Shown here piece after piece: positions 46,122-50,881 of a stretch of DNA of 64,000 bases; the first letter of the stretch is position 1; every line of letters starts with the position of its first letter. Below the pieces are notes generated by a model. The model did no database searches and was not told the DNA's origin. It saw only the letters and a program-made list of their open reading frames with translations. The stretch covers positions 2,400,001 to 2,464,000 of the forward strand of contig CATQHZ020000001.1 of NCBI GenBank assembly GCA_958296135.2. The letters run 5' to 3'. The position numbers and the translations under genes were made by a program. Source of the stretch: an uncultured Poribacteria bacterium (GTDB lineage: Bacteria > Poribacteria > WGA-4E > WGA-3G).

Positions 46122-47222
46122 CTACGAACCACGGAAAGAACCGCGCGGATATGAACCCAGAATCTTGACACTCCGACACAAACCTTCAAGTTGCTCTAAT
46201 GCGGAGCAGACCTTTGGCTCGGCGACATGTCCATCCATCTCCACAAAGAAAATATACTCCCACGGTTCGGCGCGCGAAGGCAAAGACGCTAGGTAACTCA
46301 TATTGAGTCCATGTTTCTTTAAAATGCCGAGGACCTGATACAGCGCGCCGACTTTATCGCGAATCGCGAAGAAGAGCGATGTCCGGTCTGCCCCGCTTGG
46401 CTGCGCCTCACACTCGCCGATAACGAAGAACCGGGTGGTATTGTTCGGCTCATCCATGATGGAATCGGCGACGATTGGCACCTGATAAATGTCGCTAGCC
46501 AGGCTGCTGGCGATGGCACCCGCCATCGGTTCCGCCGCCGCACGCTGCGCCGCCACAGAAGTGCTGACAACCTCTACCTGCTCCACCGCTGTCATAAACC
46601 GGTTTAACCAGATGCGGCATTGCGCGAACGGCTGCCGATGCGAGTAAAGCCGCCGGATTTCCGCCAACGGTGACATGGAAAGCAGATGCTGTTTGACCGG
46701 TTGATAAACCTCGGCGCAAATTTTCAACGGAGTGCGTTGGAAACGTTCCAACACATCGCGCACCGTGCCCTGAACGGAGTTTTCAATCGCCACTACGCCA
46801 AAGTCCGCACGCCCAGCTTCGACCTCGGTGAAGATGTCGGCTTGCGGCTGCACCGGTATGAGCGCAACCGAGGAACCGAAATGGCATAAACTCGCGAGAT
46901 GTCCAAAACTACCGACGGGGCCAAGGAACGCCACCCGTTCCGGTGCTTGCAGCGCACGTGAAGCGGACAAAATCTCTGTCCAGACTGCCTCCACCGCGGC
47001 ATCTGAAAATGTCCCGTGGGCACCGTGGCTTCGGTTGCGCGCTTTCAAGCGTTCAATTACTTCCCGGTGGCGATGGGGGACGTAGACATTTGACGTACCG
47101 GTTTCTGTTTTAAAGGCACCTACCTGCTTAGAAATCTCCGCGCGTTTTTGCAACAGAGATAAAATCCGGTCGTCGATGTCGTTAATTGCATCGCGATAAT
47201 TTTCGAGTTCGGAATTTTTCAT
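46122..47222 (-). CDS. pheA: Chorismate mutase / prephenate dehydratase
   Basis: N-terminal CM domain, AFLGPVGSF, IENSVQG, NTTRFFVIG and an ACT domain. Confidence 0.95.
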   Translation of the reverse strand: MKNSELENYRDAINDIDDRILSLLQKRAEISKQVGAFKTETGTSNVYVPHRHREVIERLKARNRSHGAHGTFSDAAVEAVWTEILSASRALQAPERVAFLGPVGSFGHLASLCHFGSSVALIPVQPQADIFTEVEAGRADFGVVAIENSVQGTVRDVLERFQRTPLKICAEVYQPVKQHLLSMSPLAEIRRLYSHRQPFAQCRIWLNRFMTAVEQVEVVSTSVAAQRAAAEPMAGAIASSLASDIYQVPIVADSIMDEPNNTTRFFVIGECEAQPSGADRTSLFFAIRDKVGALYQVLGILKKHGLNMSYLASLPSRAEPWEYIFFVEMDGHVAEPKVCSALEQLEGLCRSVKILGSYPRGSFRGS

Positions 47223-47340
47223 CGTGCTCGCAGTATGACGAGGGACAACTTCCCCTCGCCCAACGATTCAGTGCGGCACGGCGAGGGACAGGTGCTCCCT
47301 CGCCCTACCGATAACAGGCGGATATGAACGACATCCACCT

Positions 47341-47586
47341 CTACGAGTTGAGTTGCCGCATAGCGGCAATCATCTCATCGTCTGAGGGGTTGTTTTGCAC
47401 CATATCAACGAACGCCTCAGCAGTTAACTTGTGTTCCTCCAGGAACATCTTGTCCTGTGGTCACGGGTAGATATAATCGCCGATGATGCCCTGCAGCCTG
47501 GCGTTGGCTTTATCGGCGATTCGGGCTAACCACGGGATGTTCCCGATGATCATATCCCGGTGCCTCGGTTTCCAATCAAGTGCCAT
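47341..47586 (-). CDS. DUF5069-like protein with in-frame UGA at codon 42 (putative selenocysteine)
   Basis: AGGAGG SD 8 nt before ATG. Translation: MALDWKPRHRDMIIGNIPWLARIADKANARLQGIIGDYIYP-UGA-PQDKMFLEEHKLTAEAFVDMVQNNPSDDEMIAAMRQLNS*. Absent from the ORF track. Confidence 0.75.
47432..47447 (-). promoter_or_regulatory. Candidate bacterial SECIS hairpin UGUUCC-UGGA-GGAACA
   Basis: Perfect stem starting 14 nt after the UGA, with a G-containing loop about 21 nt downstream. Confidence 0.55.
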
Positions 47587-47695
47587 AGTTTGCACCTCCT
47601 ATAAGGTAGGCGGATTATAGACTCTGCCTACCGGGTATTCCGTAGGCGCGGTTTCCAACCGCGCACGGATAACTCAGAAATTCCATAAGCGTGGT

Positions 47696-50600
47696 TTATT
47701 GTGCGTTTTCCTCAAGCCGCCTCAAAGTTTGCTCTAAAAGCCTGAGGTAGCGGCCGTATTCTGCCCACTTCCCGGCCCGCTGCGCGGTTTGCGCCTGCTT
47801 CAAATAGGTATTCGCCTGCTCAACGAGGCCACGCGCAGACGTTTCGCCAATAGGCTCTCCGGCACCCTCTGCCGCAGGCAGCATCGCGTCGGAAGCAGCC
47901 GGGGTATCCACGCCGAACATCTTGATGAGTGCCGCGTCAAAACTTTCACCCCAGACAACATTCTCTTTGTAACCGACAACAACGCGCCGCAACTCAGGAA
48001 TCGCTGTCTTCTCATCTTCCGACTGGATATAGATGGGTTCGACGTAAAGGAGCGAGTTGTTCATCGGCAGAATCAGCAGATTGCCGCGGAGAACACGTGA
48101 ACCTTGCGTATTCCATAGGCTGATCTGCTGCGAGATGTCGGGCTCCTGGCTAATGAAGTTTTCCACCTGCATCGGCCCCGGCACCAATTTCCCTTTCGGA
48201 AAGCGGTAGACAAGAAGCTGCCCGTATTGCGGCAGATCGCACCGCGCCGCCAACCATGCAGTCAGGTTCGGTTTGTTCCGCGGCGTAAACGGCAACATCA
48301 ACATGAATTCCGCCTTCTCCTGCCCTGGCAGCCGGATAACCACATAGTAGGGTTCAACGTCCTGAACGTTTGAGGGTGAACTTTGAACCACCGGGCGTTG
48401 CGGCGCAAACGGACCCGCTTGCTGCTGCGGCGCAATTTGCCGAGATTGCGAATCAGTGTTGTCATACAACTCTCTACCGATTTCCCACTGGTCCTCGCCC
48501 GCATAGAACGTGACCGGGTCTTTCATGTGGTAGTCTCGATAGACGTTGGCCTGGATAAGGAACATCCCCATCGGATAACGGATATGCGCTTTTAACTCCG
48601 AAGGCATTTCCTCAAACGATTTGAATAGATTCGGAAAGATTCTGTCGTAGCATGCCGCAATCGGGTCCTGCTCCTGCTCAACCCGGTAAAAATCAACCGT
48701 GCCATCATACGCATCAACGACGACTTTCACCGAATTTCGGATGTAGTTCCCCCACGGCTCACCGTCCCGCCGTGTCGGCGGCACAGGCCCTACAGTCCGC
48801 CGACGCGGCGTAAGTTCTCTCATCGAGAGCGAATAGGGATACCGGTGCGTGACAGTGTAGGCATCAATCATCCAAACCAGCCTGCCATTGTGTAGAATGA
48901 TATAAGGGTCTCCATCATAGCGTAAGAAGGGCGCGATTTTATGGACGCGCCTCTTGATATGCCGTTCATAGAGAACCCGACTCGTCGGCGTAATCTCGCC
49001 CGGCAGGATAAAGTTGATCTGCGTATCAAACTTCAACATGTAGACGAATTTGCGCCAGAACGACGTGAGCGGCACGCCGCCTTTGCCCTGATACGCGTTC
49101 ATGGCGTATCGCTGTCCCTCTTGCGGGTAATCAAATTCTAATGCCTCCGCCCGGTCCGGATGCACGATGACATACCGGTCGGTGCGTTCACCGTAGTAGA
49201 TACGCGGACCGGGCTCATCGTTGAAGCGGTGCGGCCAGTCCGGTGCATAGTCAATCGGCGGCAAGCCTTGAATGGACATGTTCGGTTTGCCGTTATCGAT
49301 CTCATTGACAGGACTCAAGACCGCGCCATACCCATGCGTATAGGTGTAAGTCTGCTTATACCAATCATTTCTTATCTCCGTAGGGAGTTCGTTGATGTTG
49401 AGCTCGCGCGCAGACAACATCACCTGCCGAATTTCATCGTCAATAGGATACCGGTCGATATCCACATCGTAGAAGTCATACTGCGAACGTAACTCTTGCA
49501 ACTGCCGGAAGGTTCTGCGCAACGGCCGCCAATCCCAAAGGCGAATGCTGTTAATAACCGGGGCGTTCTCAGGGCCCGTGATGTCGCTATAAGCGAGCTC
49601 CTCTGTGAGCGGATATTCCTTTTCGGTTACGGTGCTCCCCTCTAAGCCGTAAGCTTGGAGCGTCGCCTTGATGTTATAGTTGATAAACTCGGGCTCCAAC
49701 TCCTGTTTTCTCGGTTCAACCTGCCATGTCTGGACAAGCGTCGGGTAGAGCTGGCCGAGGACACCCGCAACGATAAAGACAGCAAACGCGCCGAAGGCAA
49801 CCCTGGTCCGCCGCAAGAAGATGCTAATGAAGAACACCAAGGCGCACAGCACTGTGAGCCCAAGCAACAGGTATAAAATCGGCAGGCGCGCGTGCATCGC
49901 CGCATATCCACCACCGGCACGCACCACATCGTTTGACGTATAGAGCAGATCGAACATGGCGAAGCGGTAGTTCCAGGCGCGAAATAGCAGCGTGACAGCA
50001 ACAAGGACGAACAGATGCGCTTTCACCGCAGGCGGCGGACGAAACCGGAGTTGGTTCGTATCGCCGGTGATGAGCCCGTGGAAAAAGTAGATGACGACAG
50101 AAAATATCGTCACTAACAAAAACATCCCGAAGAACGTCCCGCAAATGTACCGCTCCAACGGCATTTTAAAGACGTAGTAGGCGACATCCTTGTTGAAAAT
50201 CGGGTCGCGAGCGACTGACGTGAACGATGCTTCTTGCCCGGCCTCTACCTGGATAGTCGTATTCAGACGGAGCCCGTTTTCTAGCAACGCTTCCACGCGC
50301 GCTGTCTGGTTGTTTCCATCAACTCGAACGTTGATTTCATCGCCGACCTGGAGGTTCTTCGCTTGTAGTTCCAGTGGAGCAACTGGCACCTCAGCGGAAT
50401 TGAGAGAATCGGGTCCAGAGCTCCCCCCTACAAGGATAGGTGTAGCTGTTTGGAACTCAAGTCCATCGGCGTTCCGATAACGCAGCCAGAGCTCCCACCG
50501 GTCGCTGGCGGCATAACCCATGAAGATACTGAAGAGAACGGCGAGTAGTGCCAGCCCGCCGTAAATGAGTTTGCGCGTGTCGCCTCCACTTCCAAGCGAA

Positions 50601-50881
50601 CCGCCGGTGAATTCTGTGCCGCCCATAAAAGCGGGGCTCAGATGCGCCGGTGTGAACCGATAGAGGAGCGCGAGGTTCACCAACAGAATTATCGCATAGA
50701 CAAGCCCGACAAGCACCCCCATGCCGATTTGAGTCCACAGAATTTTGGCGTAAACCTCAAAGTAGTTCACCATCTCAAACCAGAGGAAATCGGGATAGAT
50801 GTTAATCCACGCGGCGAGACTACCGACGAGCACCGCGAGAATAATGATTGTGATAAAAGAACGTTTCATGCGTGAGTCCAT
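47696..50881 (-). CDS. UPF0182 family membrane protein
   Basis: DFLWF, DPIFNKDVAYYVF, IRLWD, YTHGYG, PRIYYGE, YIRNSVKVVVDAYDG and LLYVEPIY. Confidence 0.93.
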   Translation of the reverse strand: MDSRMKRSFITIIILAVLVGSLAAWINIYPDFLWFEMVNYFEVYAKILWTQIGMGVLVGLVYAIILLVNLALLYRFTPAHLSPAFMGGTEFTGGSLGSGGDTRKLIYGGLALLAVLFSIFMGYAASDRWELWLRYRNADGLEFQTATPILVGGSSGPDSLNSAEVPVAPLELQAKNLQVGDEINVRVDGNNQTARVEALLENGLRLNTTIQVEAGQEASFTSVARDPIFNKDVAYYVFKMPLERYICGTFFGMFLLVTIFSVVIYFFHGLITGDTNQLRFRPPPAVKAHLFVLVAVTLLFRAWNYRFAMFDLLYTSNDVVRAGGGYAAMHARLPILYLLLGLTVLCALVFFISIFLRRTRVAFGAFAVFIVAGVLGQLYPTLVQTWQVEPRKQELEPEFINYNIKATLQAYGLEGSTVTEKEYPLTEELAYSDITGPENAPVINSIRLWDWRPLRRTFRQLQELRSQYDFYDVDIDRYPIDDEIRQVMLSARELNINELPTEIRNDWYKQTYTYTHGYGAVLSPVNEIDNGKPNMSIQGLPPIDYAPDWPHRFNDEPGPRIYYGERTDRYVIVHPDRAEALEFDYPQEGQRYAMNAYQGKGGVPLTSFWRKFVYMLKFDTQINFILPGEITPTSRVLYERHIKRRVHKIAPFLRYDGDPYIILHNGRLVWMIDAYTVTHRYPYSLSMRELTPRRRTVGPVPPTRRDGEPWGNYIRNSVKVVVDAYDGTVDFYRVEQEQDPIAACYDRIFPNLFKSFEEMPSELKAHIRYPMGMFLIQANVYRDYHMKDPVTFYAGEDQWEIGRELYDNTDSQSRQIAPQQQAGPFAPQRPVVQSSPSNVQDVEPYYVVIRLPGQEKAEFMLMLPFTPRNKPNLTAWLAARCDLPQYGQLLVYRFPKGKLVPGPMQVENFISQEPDISQQISLWNTQGSRVLRGNLLILPMNNSLLYVEPIYIQSEDEKTAIPELRRVVVGYKENVVWGESFDAALIKMFGVDTPAASDAMLPAAEGAGEPIGETSARGLVEQANTYLKQAQTAQRAGKWAEYGRYLRLLEQTLRRLEENAQ

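Follow-up and report, generated by a model that had tools for sequence, protein, structure and literature searches.

Organization of the locus

The window, meaning the whole 64,000-nucleotide stretch of Poribacteria DNA that was analyzed, contains on its minus strand a UPF0182 family gene and pheA separated by a gap. This gap looks intergenic, since an open reading frame listing with translation table 11 shows just two short pieces of 44 and 35 amino acids. The original prediction was that it holds an AGGAGG Shine-Dalgarno sequence, an ATG and 81 codons interrupted by TGA at 47461-47463, and these were confirmed on the minus strand at the same coordinates. The genes and features of the locus are as follows.

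47696..50881, minus strand: UPF0182 family gene, the upstream neighbor (Pfam PF03699, E 5e-242)
47595..47600, minus strand: Shine-Dalgarno sequence AGGAGG, read from the sequence, 8 nt before the ATG
47341..47586, minus strand: coding sequence of a predicted 81-residue DUF5069-family selenoprotein (ATG 47586..47584, TAG 47343..47341; translated with TGA as U)
47461..47463, minus strand: UGA codon 42, putatively read as selenocysteine (Sec), in the context GDYIYP-*-PQD
46122..47222, minus strand: pheA, encoding chorismate mutase, prephenate dehydratase and ACT domains (Pfam CM_2, PDT, ACT)

The TGA at codon 42 is the sole internal stop of the 81-codon frame, and AGGAGGTGA-like sites stand ahead of the ATG in most of 50 orthologous loci. 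A scan of 47000-47900 for promoter and terminator consensus sequences found nothing on the minus strand. When sequencing runs were searched for the locus, four holders were found, all from one sample and with no RNA run among them. Contigs from these four runs showed no alternative letter over 47200-47700, an agreement which does not amount to independent support because the single sample is probably the source of the assembly.

The read-through product was expected to resemble DUF5069, and it matched Pfam DUF5069 (PF16798) over residues 7-77 with a score of 48.8 bits (cut-off 27, E 9.9e-13). Because this match extends across the TGA, the 81-codon frame cannot be put down to chance. The match covers positions 4-74 of the 133 positions of the profile rather than the whole domain, and the 81-residue protein is a short form corresponding to the N-terminal helical half of DUF5069.

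Conservation of the UGA codon and of the sequence behind it

An ortholog with exactly one TGA was present in 61 of 61 genomes, comprising the genome itself and 60 relatives from 13 genera. In a search of the whole phylum an ortholog was matched in 168 of 176 genomes, and among the matches listed 150 of 150 carry one TGA. The original prediction had also called for a conserved TGA/Cys pairing among relatives, and this was borne out at codon 42 of 144 Poribacteria-type loci, where TGA was found 136 times, TGC 7 times and TGT once. In a sister family (f8) all eight genomes carry Cys (TGC or TGT), with selB above cut-off in seven of the eight. In another family (f5) the gene was found in 0/3 genomes, selB in 0/3 and tRNA-Sec in 0/2; this is the only family in which selB and tRNA-Sec are both missing, and the gene is missing there too.

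Marine metagenome contigs contributed at least two further clades with the gene (clades A and B); sequences of the clade A or B type were absent from the 176 genomes of the phylum that were searched. Of the metagenome loci showing the motif, 48/56 have TGA, with further Cys forms among the rest. Across the wider DUF5069 family, the Sec column is most often occupied by Cys (110 of 155 filled cells), in agreement with the proposal that the TGA sits where Cys is usual. Ser occupies 29 of the same 155 cells, so the position is not indispensable everywhere in DUF5069, which weakens the inference of a catalytic residue.

The segment behind the TGA is under purifying selection, as pN/pS is 0.123 for the codons upstream of the UGA and 0.188 for those downstream, while the two alternative frames give 1.8 and 2.4; the expected conservation past the TGA is thereby confirmed. 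The gene has an in-frame UGA with selected coding sequence on both sides. Elsewhere in the genome TGA is an ordinary stop, ending 316 of 1461 long frames.

A conserved hairpin downstream of the UGA codon

Two RNA features were considered downstream of the UGA.

47432..47447, minus strand: putative SECIS upper stem-loop UGUUCC-UGGA-GGAACA (core GUUCC/GGAAC, 47446..47433)
47420..47458, minus strand: possible weak lower SECIS stem (47458..47455 with 47423..47420), uncertain

The hairpin is made up of TGTTCC (47447..47442), TGGA (47441..47438) and GGAACA (47437..47432), and begins 13 nt after the TGA. Its core stem GUUCC/GGAAC, in a stem of 5-7 bp, begins 14 nt after the UGA, and about 19 nt lie between the UGA and the loop UGGA. 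It is thus a stem-loop close behind the UGA that carries G in its apical loop, as expected of a bacterial SECIS element.

Comparison of orthologs showed that synonymous sites in the hairpin are frozen. In codons 48-51, which encode FLEE, the minor synonymous codon fractions were 0, 0.01, 0 and 0.01, compared with 0.3-0.5 in the flanking codons, and TTC, CTG, GAG and GAA each occurred in 105-106 of 106 unique sequences. In the hairpin codons pS was 0.02, versus 0.62-0.70 elsewhere. All changes observed in the hairpin among 100 unique sequences kept the pairing. In 64 diverse sequences the covariation score was 0.220, while shuffles averaged 0.087 and 0/500 of them reached the observed value; controls slid along the alignment gave at most 0.095. 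In the wider set, pair 27-40 was G-C in 51 sequences, C-G in 9, A-U in 1 and G-U in 1, and pair 26-41 was A-U in 17, U-A in 17 and G-U in 13. Compensatory G-C to C-G and U-A to A-U changes were seen in the two marine metagenome clades. The strong covariation comes from these clades, while within Poribacteria covariation is thin (two pairs with double changes) because the hairpin hardly varies there.

In all Cys forms the hairpin is broken and FLEE is relaxed to FLEK, FLER, FLQR, WLQK and similar motifs, whereas FLEE is invariant among the Sec forms of Poribacteria. The SECIS-like hairpin originally noted 3' of the TGA therefore has frozen synonymous sites, covaries and is lost in Cys forms.

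With respect to folding energy, the hairpin was not unusually stable in single-sequence folding (z 0.19 and -0.87). In the window's own sequence it was predicted at -6.4 kcal/mol versus -8.2 for a competing fold, which is 1.8 better, and it was part of the minimum free energy (MFE) structure in 50 of 86 unique orthologous segments. As folding energy gives no signal, the case for the hairpin is built on ortholog comparison. In the 66 nt analyzed with RNAalifold the hairpin was the sole conserved structure, and a search of 47200-47700 with Rfam at a permissive threshold returned four matches at chance level, none of them on the hairpin, an expected result that lends the hairpin no support.

A lower SECIS stem is not claimed for Poribacteria, where just 64.8% of cells pair; the sequence of the window itself can form just three of the four pairs proposed. 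When clade A and clade B sequences are folded, their MFE structures include a lower stem of 5-6 bp at the equivalent place.

Selenium machinery and other UGA-containing genes

The genome was anticipated to encode selA, selB, selC and selD, and all four were found above curated cut-offs. The tRNA-Sec scored 78 bits, has the anticodon TCA and adjoins selB; ARAGORN also calls a tRNA-SeC (tca). Two further genes contain an in-frame TGA, namely selD, which is itself Sec-containing, and an FdhA-like frame, each with one TGA. These are followed by the hairpins GCUCC-GGG-GGAGC (selD) and UUGCC-GGGCU-GGCAG (FdhA-like), both 12-13 nt after the UGA. Among the sampled genomes of the phylum, 142/151 have a tRNA-Sec.

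Predicted structure and family of the protein

The AlphaFold model of the protein (pLDDT 90.6) is all-helical with four helices, and Sec42 lies directly before helix 2 (residues 43-51). Foldseek against the PDB gave 3OMD as the sole match (TM 0.85, rmsd 1.1 Å, 73 columns) and hence no functional lead. A profile match to 3OMD was also obtained (E 1.6e-15), with a Cys of 3OMD aligned to the Sec. Among 106 single-domain family members there is one conserved Cys column only, and Sec42 lies within G-[DE]-Y-x-Y-P-U/C-P-x-D, the motif with the strongest conservation. The UxxC or CxxU motif of thioredoxin-fold proteins was not found in this protein, which is predicted to be all-helical, has no second conserved Cys and carries the motif YPUPxD.

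The original proposal was of a putative redox or metal-binding protein. A lone conserved Sec/Cys at the N-terminus of a modeled helix suggests a redox or nucleophilic role. Sec42 may act as a nucleophilic or redox-active residue and, because there is no resolving Cys, would work with an external partner or small molecule. Elsewhere DUF5069 is fused to heterogeneous partners, including an AI-2E transporter, a SAM methyltransferase, two cupins, a dienelactone hydrolase, DUF2249 and the C-terminal domain of a CO dehydrogenase flavoprotein. No match to the protein was found in NCBIfam (E up to 1), PADLOC or PHROGs.

Digestion of the protein with trypsin is predicted to yield MFLEEHK and LTAEAFVDMVQNNPSDDEMIAAMR from the part past the UGA, and LQGIIGDYIYPUPQDK as the Sec peptide.

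Interpretation of the in-frame UGA

These data indicate that the locus is a real gene for an 81-residue DUF5069 protein in which UGA codon 42 is very probably decoded as Sec by means of the SECIS hairpin. The original proposal of a Sec-containing protein is thus supported, at the level of sequence comparison, by the conservation of the UGA, the Sec/Cys pair, the hairpin and the machinery. If decoding follows the standard bacterial route, the stem-loop inside the coding sequence would recruit SelB loaded with Sec-tRNA(Sec), presumably through binding of SelB to the GUUCC-UGGA-GGAAC hairpin, and selenium would be inserted at codon 42. The peptide motif FLEE would then be fixed in all Sec forms because the RNA structure is required.

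Gene callers treat the TGA as a true stop and public records end in ...YIYP, as would be the case if the locus were a gene for a 41-residue peptide followed by untranslated sequence, or a decaying DUF5069 pseudogene. This we consider extremely improbable, as 168/176 genomes preserve the TGA together with the 39 codons that follow, pN/pS for the part past the TGA is 0.19 whereas the shifted frames give 1.8-2.4, and the Cys orthologs are uninterrupted; decay is further opposed by the lack of frameshifts or additional stops in the 136 TGA-bearing loci. Translation could also continue without Sec, with the UGA read as Trp, Cys or Arg through near-cognate suppression or local reassignment of the codon, and the hairpin merely stimulating read-through. 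A UGA followed by C is a leaky context, and such a context is present here; databases moreover hold full-length versions with W. These versions were probably translated with a code in which TGA is Trp and so are not observations. Non-Sec read-through is also difficult to reconcile with the use of TGA as a regular stop in the genome, with homologs that carry Cys and not Trp (Cys 110, Ser 29 of 155), with the complete Sec machinery of the genome, with the joint absence of the gene, selB and tRNA-Sec in f5, and with the similar hairpins that follow the UGA at this distance in other Sec genes of the same genome. It is accordingly judged very improbable.

It is very improbable that the gene encodes a selenoprotein but owes the conservation of its hairpin to a need of the protein for FLEE, with the true SECIS lying elsewhere. 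While FLEE is invariant in the Poribacteria Sec forms and the hairpin is short and absent from the MFE fold of many sequences, constraint on the protein would not freeze the synonymous sites of TTC, CTG, GAG and GAA, nor would it explain why flanking positions outside FLEE covary so as to keep pairing. Cys forms alter FLEE freely, and no other conserved structure was shown by RNAalifold in the 66 nt.

Neighboring genes

The gene for the predicted selenoprotein lies 118 nt upstream of pheA on the same strand. Among the 144 Poribacteria-type loci, pheA was found at 136, including Cys forms, and the UPF0182 gene at 125. In clade A an RsmD-like methyltransferase is upstream in two loci, and in clade B the upstream neighbor is an APH-like or unknown protein; no pheA was found at the clade A or B loci examined. 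As the neighborhood is inconsistent outside Poribacteria, it gives no function.

Across the class, Sec forms and Cys forms both retain the pairing of the gene with pheA. One might speculate that the selenoprotein acts as a partner of PheA that responds to redox state or selenium, with phenylalanine synthesis tuned by one selenol, and that DUF5069 is a new class of non-thioredoxin redox modules with one Sec or one Cys. We regard this as unlikely. If true, such a module would explain why cupins, methyltransferases, hydrolases and a transporter occur fused to DUF5069.

Annotation, novelty and significance

None of the public protein records retrieved gives the full-length gene with Sec. NCBI/ENA records consist of N-terminal pieces ending ...YIYP (P0014-P0017), and the full-length ENA versions, from short contigs, carry W at codon 42 (P0002-P0009). 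In the Pfam scan only PF16798 passed the cut-off, and no published selenoprotein family was matched in Pfam or NCBIfam. Table 1 of a 2026 review gives 119 prokaryotic selenoprotein families, among which DUF5069/PF16798 is absent (PMC13188914). Literature searches returned no paper on DUF5069 or PF16798 and only unrelated matches for 3OMD, and, judged by title and the start of the abstract, nothing related to selenoproteins or selenocysteine in Poribacteria. This agrees with the earlier remark that DUF5069 is not an established selenoprotein family. We conclude that this is a new selenoprotein family, which could stand under another name in BSepDB Table S2 or the GOS lists. As new bacterial selenoprotein families are still found regularly, it is a well-founded addition to a growing list but introduces no new principle.

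The predicted family has been overlooked by standard annotation across a candidate phylum, appearing as an intergenic gap or a 41-residue stub in 168/176 genomes. It offers a first functional handle on DUF5069, a family with a solved structure (3OMD), since a Sec/Cys pair usually marks a chemically active residue. It also presents a natural experiment in which the putative SECIS freezes four codons (FLEE) in Sec forms and the motif drifts once Cys replaces Sec. The Poribacteria, important sponge symbionts, emerge as consistent users of selenium, as seen from the tRNA-Sec in 142/151 sampled genomes.

Comparison with known systems

Zhang and Gladyshev (2008) described GOS_A, GOS_B and GOS_C as small selenoproteins from marine metagenomes; these resemble the present family in being short, marine and discovered by computation only, with Sec/Cys pairs and a SECIS-like hairpin (PMC2398784). 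GOS_B and GOS_C now have the NCBIfam models NF041374 and NF045500 (PMC13188914 Table 1), whereas a search of NCBIfam at E up to 1 gave no match for the Poribacteria protein. For GOS_A the 2008 paper reports 2 Sec sequences, 155 Cys homologs and no domain (PMC2398784), and the Poribacteria family may be GOS_A.

The closest known structure is 3OMD from Leptospirillum rubarum, a DUF5069 protein which is similar in sequence and fold and has a Cys aligned to the Sec. It differs, as does DUF5069 in general, in that the Poribacteria protein comprises the N-terminal half and has Sec in place of Cys.

MsrA and 1-Cys peroxiredoxin are redox proteins with a single Cys or Sec and have the reactive residue at the N-terminus of a helix. 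The Poribacteria protein may work like these in having one Sec/Cys before a helix and no resolving Cys, but it differs from MsrA and thioredoxin-like proteins in its all-helical fold, with no match to them in sequence or fold.

The type case of an in-frame UGA with an intragenic SECIS read by SelB is E. coli fdhF. As in fdhF-type genes, the in-frame UGA is followed by an intragenic stem-loop with G's in a small apical loop, selA-selD are present in the genome and Cys homologs exist. Unlike those genes, the protein belongs to a family undescribed as a selenoprotein, and its upper stem, to which SelB is predicted to bind, is just 5-7 bp long. In both distance and size the hairpin is similar to its counterparts in selD and the FdhA-like gene of the same genome.

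The locus and its reading frame

The original prediction described a Shine-Dalgarno sequence, an ATG, an 81-codon frame with a single TGA and a hairpin, and every detail of these was re-found in the sequence. The elements and the flanking genes are as follows.

47696-50881, minus strand: UPF0182 gene, upstream neighbour
47600..47595, minus strand: Shine-Dalgarno sequence AGGAGG, with an 8 nt spacer to the ATG
47586..47584, minus strand: ATG start of the candidate selenoprotein gene
47463..47461, minus strand: TGA after 41 sense codons
47447..47432, minus strand: hairpin UGUUCC-UGGA-GGAACA, 13 nt past the UGA
47343..47341, minus strand: TAG stop after 39 further sense codons
46122-47222, minus strand: pheA, downstream neighbour (Pfam CM_2, PDT, ACT)

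The locus appears intergenic because translation with table 11 lists just two short ORFs there. When the TGA was read as a residue, the 81-residue product bore out the proposed likeness to Pfam DUF5069 (PF16798), with a score of 48.8 bits against a cut-off of 27; the match runs from residue 7 to residue 77 and takes in both sides of the TGA. No NCBIfam model matched this product, and PADLOC and PHROGs gave no match. With respect to gene order, 136 of 144 Poribacteria-type loci, including those with a Cys codon in place of the TGA (Cys forms), had pheA as the next gene in the same orientation, an order kept class-wide, and the UPF0182 neighbour was kept upstream in 125 of the 144 (L021-L164). 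Fusion partners of DUF5069 elsewhere were diverse.

Several repeats were also observed around the gene. Between the UPF0182 stop and the Shine-Dalgarno sequence, directly next to the latter, lies a 10-bp inverted repeat (GGTAGGCGGA / TCTGCCTACC, 90% complementary; 47605-47632), a possible terminator or regulatory hairpin. An inverted repeat of 16 nt (47475-47521), its arms 88% complementary and separated by 15 nt, falls inside the reading frame ahead of the UGA, at approximately codons 23-27 and 33-38, and may be a chance product of the like peptides IADKA and IIGDY. In the 118-nt spacer before pheA there are two palindromic units, CGAGGGA...TCCCTCGCC, spaced about 44 nt from each other (47233-47310; inverted repeats I2-I4, direct repeats D2 and D3), which look like a dispersed REP-like element and, because no T-run follows them, not a classic terminator. 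Pieces of these units (47280-47297, 47317-47337), and a further piece at 47642-47664, recur on other contigs from the same sample.

Conservation of the TGA and translation beyond it

Exactly one TGA was present in the best match of each of 61 genomes (the window's own and 60 relatives, from four families and 13 genera; identity 63-99%), and in 50 extracted loci it was always codon 42. Orthologs were matched at E 1e-10 or better in 168 of 176 genomes of the phylum, with one TGA in all 150 matches listed (28 more lie beyond those listed). Of the eight genomes without a match, two were incomplete main-family genomes of 81% completeness, and families f5, f10 and f11 supplied the other six; for f5, selB was above cut-off in 0/3 genomes and tRNA-Sec was found in 0/2. 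Family f8 belongs to the same class but to another order, and in all eight of its genomes the ortholog has an unbroken frame whose codon 42 encodes Cys. As selB was above cut-off in seven of these eight, the Cys forms live in selenium users.

The TGA/Cys pairing anticipated by the original prediction was conserved among relatives, codon 42 being TGA in 136, TGC in 7 and TGT in 1 of the 144 loci, which were drawn from two collections in which the same genomes may occur twice (101 of 135 N-free 66-nt segments were unique). A tree built from 145 unique proteins (133 with Sec and 12 with Cys), in which the Sec/Cys column was masked, placed Cys forms inside each of three clades and called for at least four state changes, three of them forced by well-supported branches. 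The protein is short, the tree is unrooted and many forks are unresolved; the sole conclusion drawn is that Sec and Cys have been exchanged several times.

Selection on the coding sequence was measured as pN/pS over 800 random pairs from 106 unique Sec-form sequences. The ratio was 0.123 for codons 2-41, before the UGA, and 0.188 for codons 43-80, after it, as against 1.8 and 2.4 when the latter stretch was read in frames +1 and +2. The sequence after the TGA is thus conserved, in agreement with the original prediction, and invariant residues beyond the UGA in a 19-sequence alignment include F59, P67, S68, D69, M72, I73 and A75. These patterns argue for translation of the stretch beyond the TGA.

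Selenocysteine machinery

The selA, selB, selC and selD genes were all present in the window's genome (5.19 Mb). The tRNA-Sec scored 78 bits, was called by ARAGORN as tRNA-SeC with anticodon tca, and directly adjoins selB approximately 51 kb from the candidate gene; a phylum-wide sample gave a tRNA-Sec in 142 of 151 genomes. The selD frame and an FdhA-like frame of 920 codons, both outside the window, lie at G000:C1:2864299-2865270 and G000:C1:3624236-3624967. selD has one in-frame TGA after ...VKCAG and is itself a selenoprotein gene; the FdhA-like frame also has one TGA, in the context NCSRA-U-HAP. Genome-wide reassignment of TGA was excluded, since 316 of the 1461 stop-to-stop frames with at least 400 codons close with TGA, which is otherwise an ordinary stop in this genome.

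The hairpin as a probable SECIS element

Codons 48-51 (Phe-Leu-Glu-Glu), which encode the hairpin region, were nearly invariant at the nucleotide level (TTC 106/106, CTG 105/106, GAG 106/106, GAA 105/106), while neighbouring two- to six-fold degenerate codons had minor-codon fractions of 0.3-0.5; pS was 0.02 here and 0.62-0.70 elsewhere. No core pair was broken in 100 unique Poribacteria sequences (G-C 98/A-U 1/G-U 1, U-A 99/U-G 1, U-A 100, C-G 100, C-G 99/U-G 1). Further Sec forms came from marine metagenomes, a scan of which yielded 58 loci, with TGA in 48, Cys in 8 and the motif absent from 2; these were Poribacteria-like loci beside pheA and two further clades, A and B, beside which pheA was not found. 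Clade A (L181-L200) has an identical GUUCC-UGGA-GGAAC with the stem lengthened by A-U pairs, and clade B (12 loci) has C-UUCC-UGGA-GGAA-G, the outer G-C pair being inverted to C-G. In 64 diverse sequences, pair 27-40 was G-C in 51, C-G in 9, A-U in 1, G-U in 1 and unpaired in 2, and pair 26-41 was A-U in 17, U-A in 17, G-U in 13 and unpaired in 17. The proposed covariation was confirmed in this wider set, with a score of 0.220; shuffled alignments averaged 0.087 and reached the observed score in 0/500 shuffles, and the slid-partner control gave at most 0.095. A divergent locus, L199, has re-formed the hairpin in a shifted place, as GCUUC-CUUGA-GAAGC.

In every Cys form, hairpin complementarity and FLEE were both gone, the latter replaced by FLEK, FLER, FLQR, WLQK, WLRK, FLKQ, FLQD, FLQE or VLER. 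Remnants such as GTTCCTGGAG were still recognisable in some, which would be the expected look of decay after a Sec-to-Cys change, although the unrooted tree gives no direction.

Taken alone, the folding energy of the hairpin was nothing exceptional. The window's own sequence gave -6.4 kcal/mol versus -8.2 for a competing fold, and the hairpin was within the MFE structure of just 50 of 86 unique orthologous segments. A lower stem was predicted for clades A and B and was just 64.8% paired in Poribacteria; no Rfam family matched the hairpin. The hairpins of selD (GCUCC-GGG-GGAGC, 12 nt past the UGA) and of the FdhA-like gene (UUGCC-GGGCU-GGCAG, 13 nt) resemble that of the DUF5069 gene in lying 12-13 nt past the UGA; their loops are G-rich. 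In this comparison, the expected spacing and loop features of a bacterial SECIS were taken from general background rather than from bSECISearch. On comparative sequence evidence, the UGUUCC-UGGA-GGAACA hairpin appears to behave as a SECIS.

In two of four sequencing runs, 31-letter contigs (depths 27-75) matched only positions 47431-47461 with 0-1 differences; they are probably from co-resident Poribacteria relatives having the same invariant SECIS region.

Protein structure and possible role

The AlphaFold model, a confident one (pLDDT 90.6, pTM 0.79), has four helices, at 20-32, 43-51, 56-65 and 69-80, with Sec42 directly preceding the second. Its sole structural relative in the PDB was 3OMD from Leptospirillum rubarum, a protein of unknown function (TM 0.85, rmsd 1.1 Å), in which a Cys aligned with the Sec. 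Of the 133 positions of the Pfam domain, the Poribacteria protein spans 4-74, which is only the N-terminal half. Among 106 single-domain family members the one conserved Cys column was the Sec position; across 166 domains taken from the best representatives, 155 cells of this column were filled, 110 of them by Cys and 29 by Ser, and R22, D25, K26, R28, D45 and D69 were close to invariant. The Sec/Cys is a lone residue at a helix N-terminus within the most conserved motif of the family, as expected of a nucleophilic or redox residue with an external partner. Sec42 may be such a residue, although the Ser variants caution against this, and our confidence in any specific biochemical role is far below that in the gene and its Sec decoding.

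Other DUF5069 proteins were also seen in Poribacteria. Proteins of about 420-460 residues carry two or three tandem DUF5069-like repeats and no TGA; they were seen at G000:C1:3928225-3928419, which lies outside the window, and in many relatives. P0026, the single repeat protein that was read, has some repeats without Cys. Some genomes have DUF5069 proteins of about 140-160 residues.

Database records and comparison with known selenoproteins

In a collection of 5.8 billion proteins, full-length versions had only W at position 42 and came from short ENA contigs; we infer that they arose from a TGA=Trp translation table. Four records were N-terminal pieces ending ...YIYP, many with spurious upstream extensions, and two of them were also in NCBI. 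Cys forms were named at best 'hypothetical protein' (P0010) or were nameless (P0013). A search of 1.84 billion representatives gave a like pattern, with further truncated pieces stopping at profile position 41 and a few beginning beyond it. Trp-translated or N-terminal-stub records were P0002-P0009, P0011, P0012 and P0014-P0017. Such forms are an artefact that annotation produces systematically for small selenoproteins.

The locus is very probably a genuine, conserved, unannotated selenoprotein gene with Sec decoding, and it is a new Sec-containing branch of DUF5069. No mention of 'DUF5069' or 'PF16798' was found in the literature searched by these names, and the family is absent from the 119 families and subfamilies listed with domain identifiers in Table 1 of a 2026 review of the prokaryotic selenoproteome (PMC13188914). 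In the portions available of the other sources, which include a 2022 review (PMC9312934), deep-Sep gives nine new families, DUF5069 not among them (PMC12013277), and BSepDB has 111 families, with the list placed in its supplement (PMC13326102). The available part of the GOS study describes a 'hypothetical protein GOS_A' with 2 Sec sequences, 155 Cys homologs and no domain (PMC2398784); it comes without accession or model there. Should GOS_A be the same family, the present work would have found that family again, in a far broader distribution. The gene is of interest to selenoprotein and sponge-symbiont researchers and to DUF5069 curators, and is not a new principle; the decoding mechanism is the same as the standard bacterial one, and the new part is the protein family.
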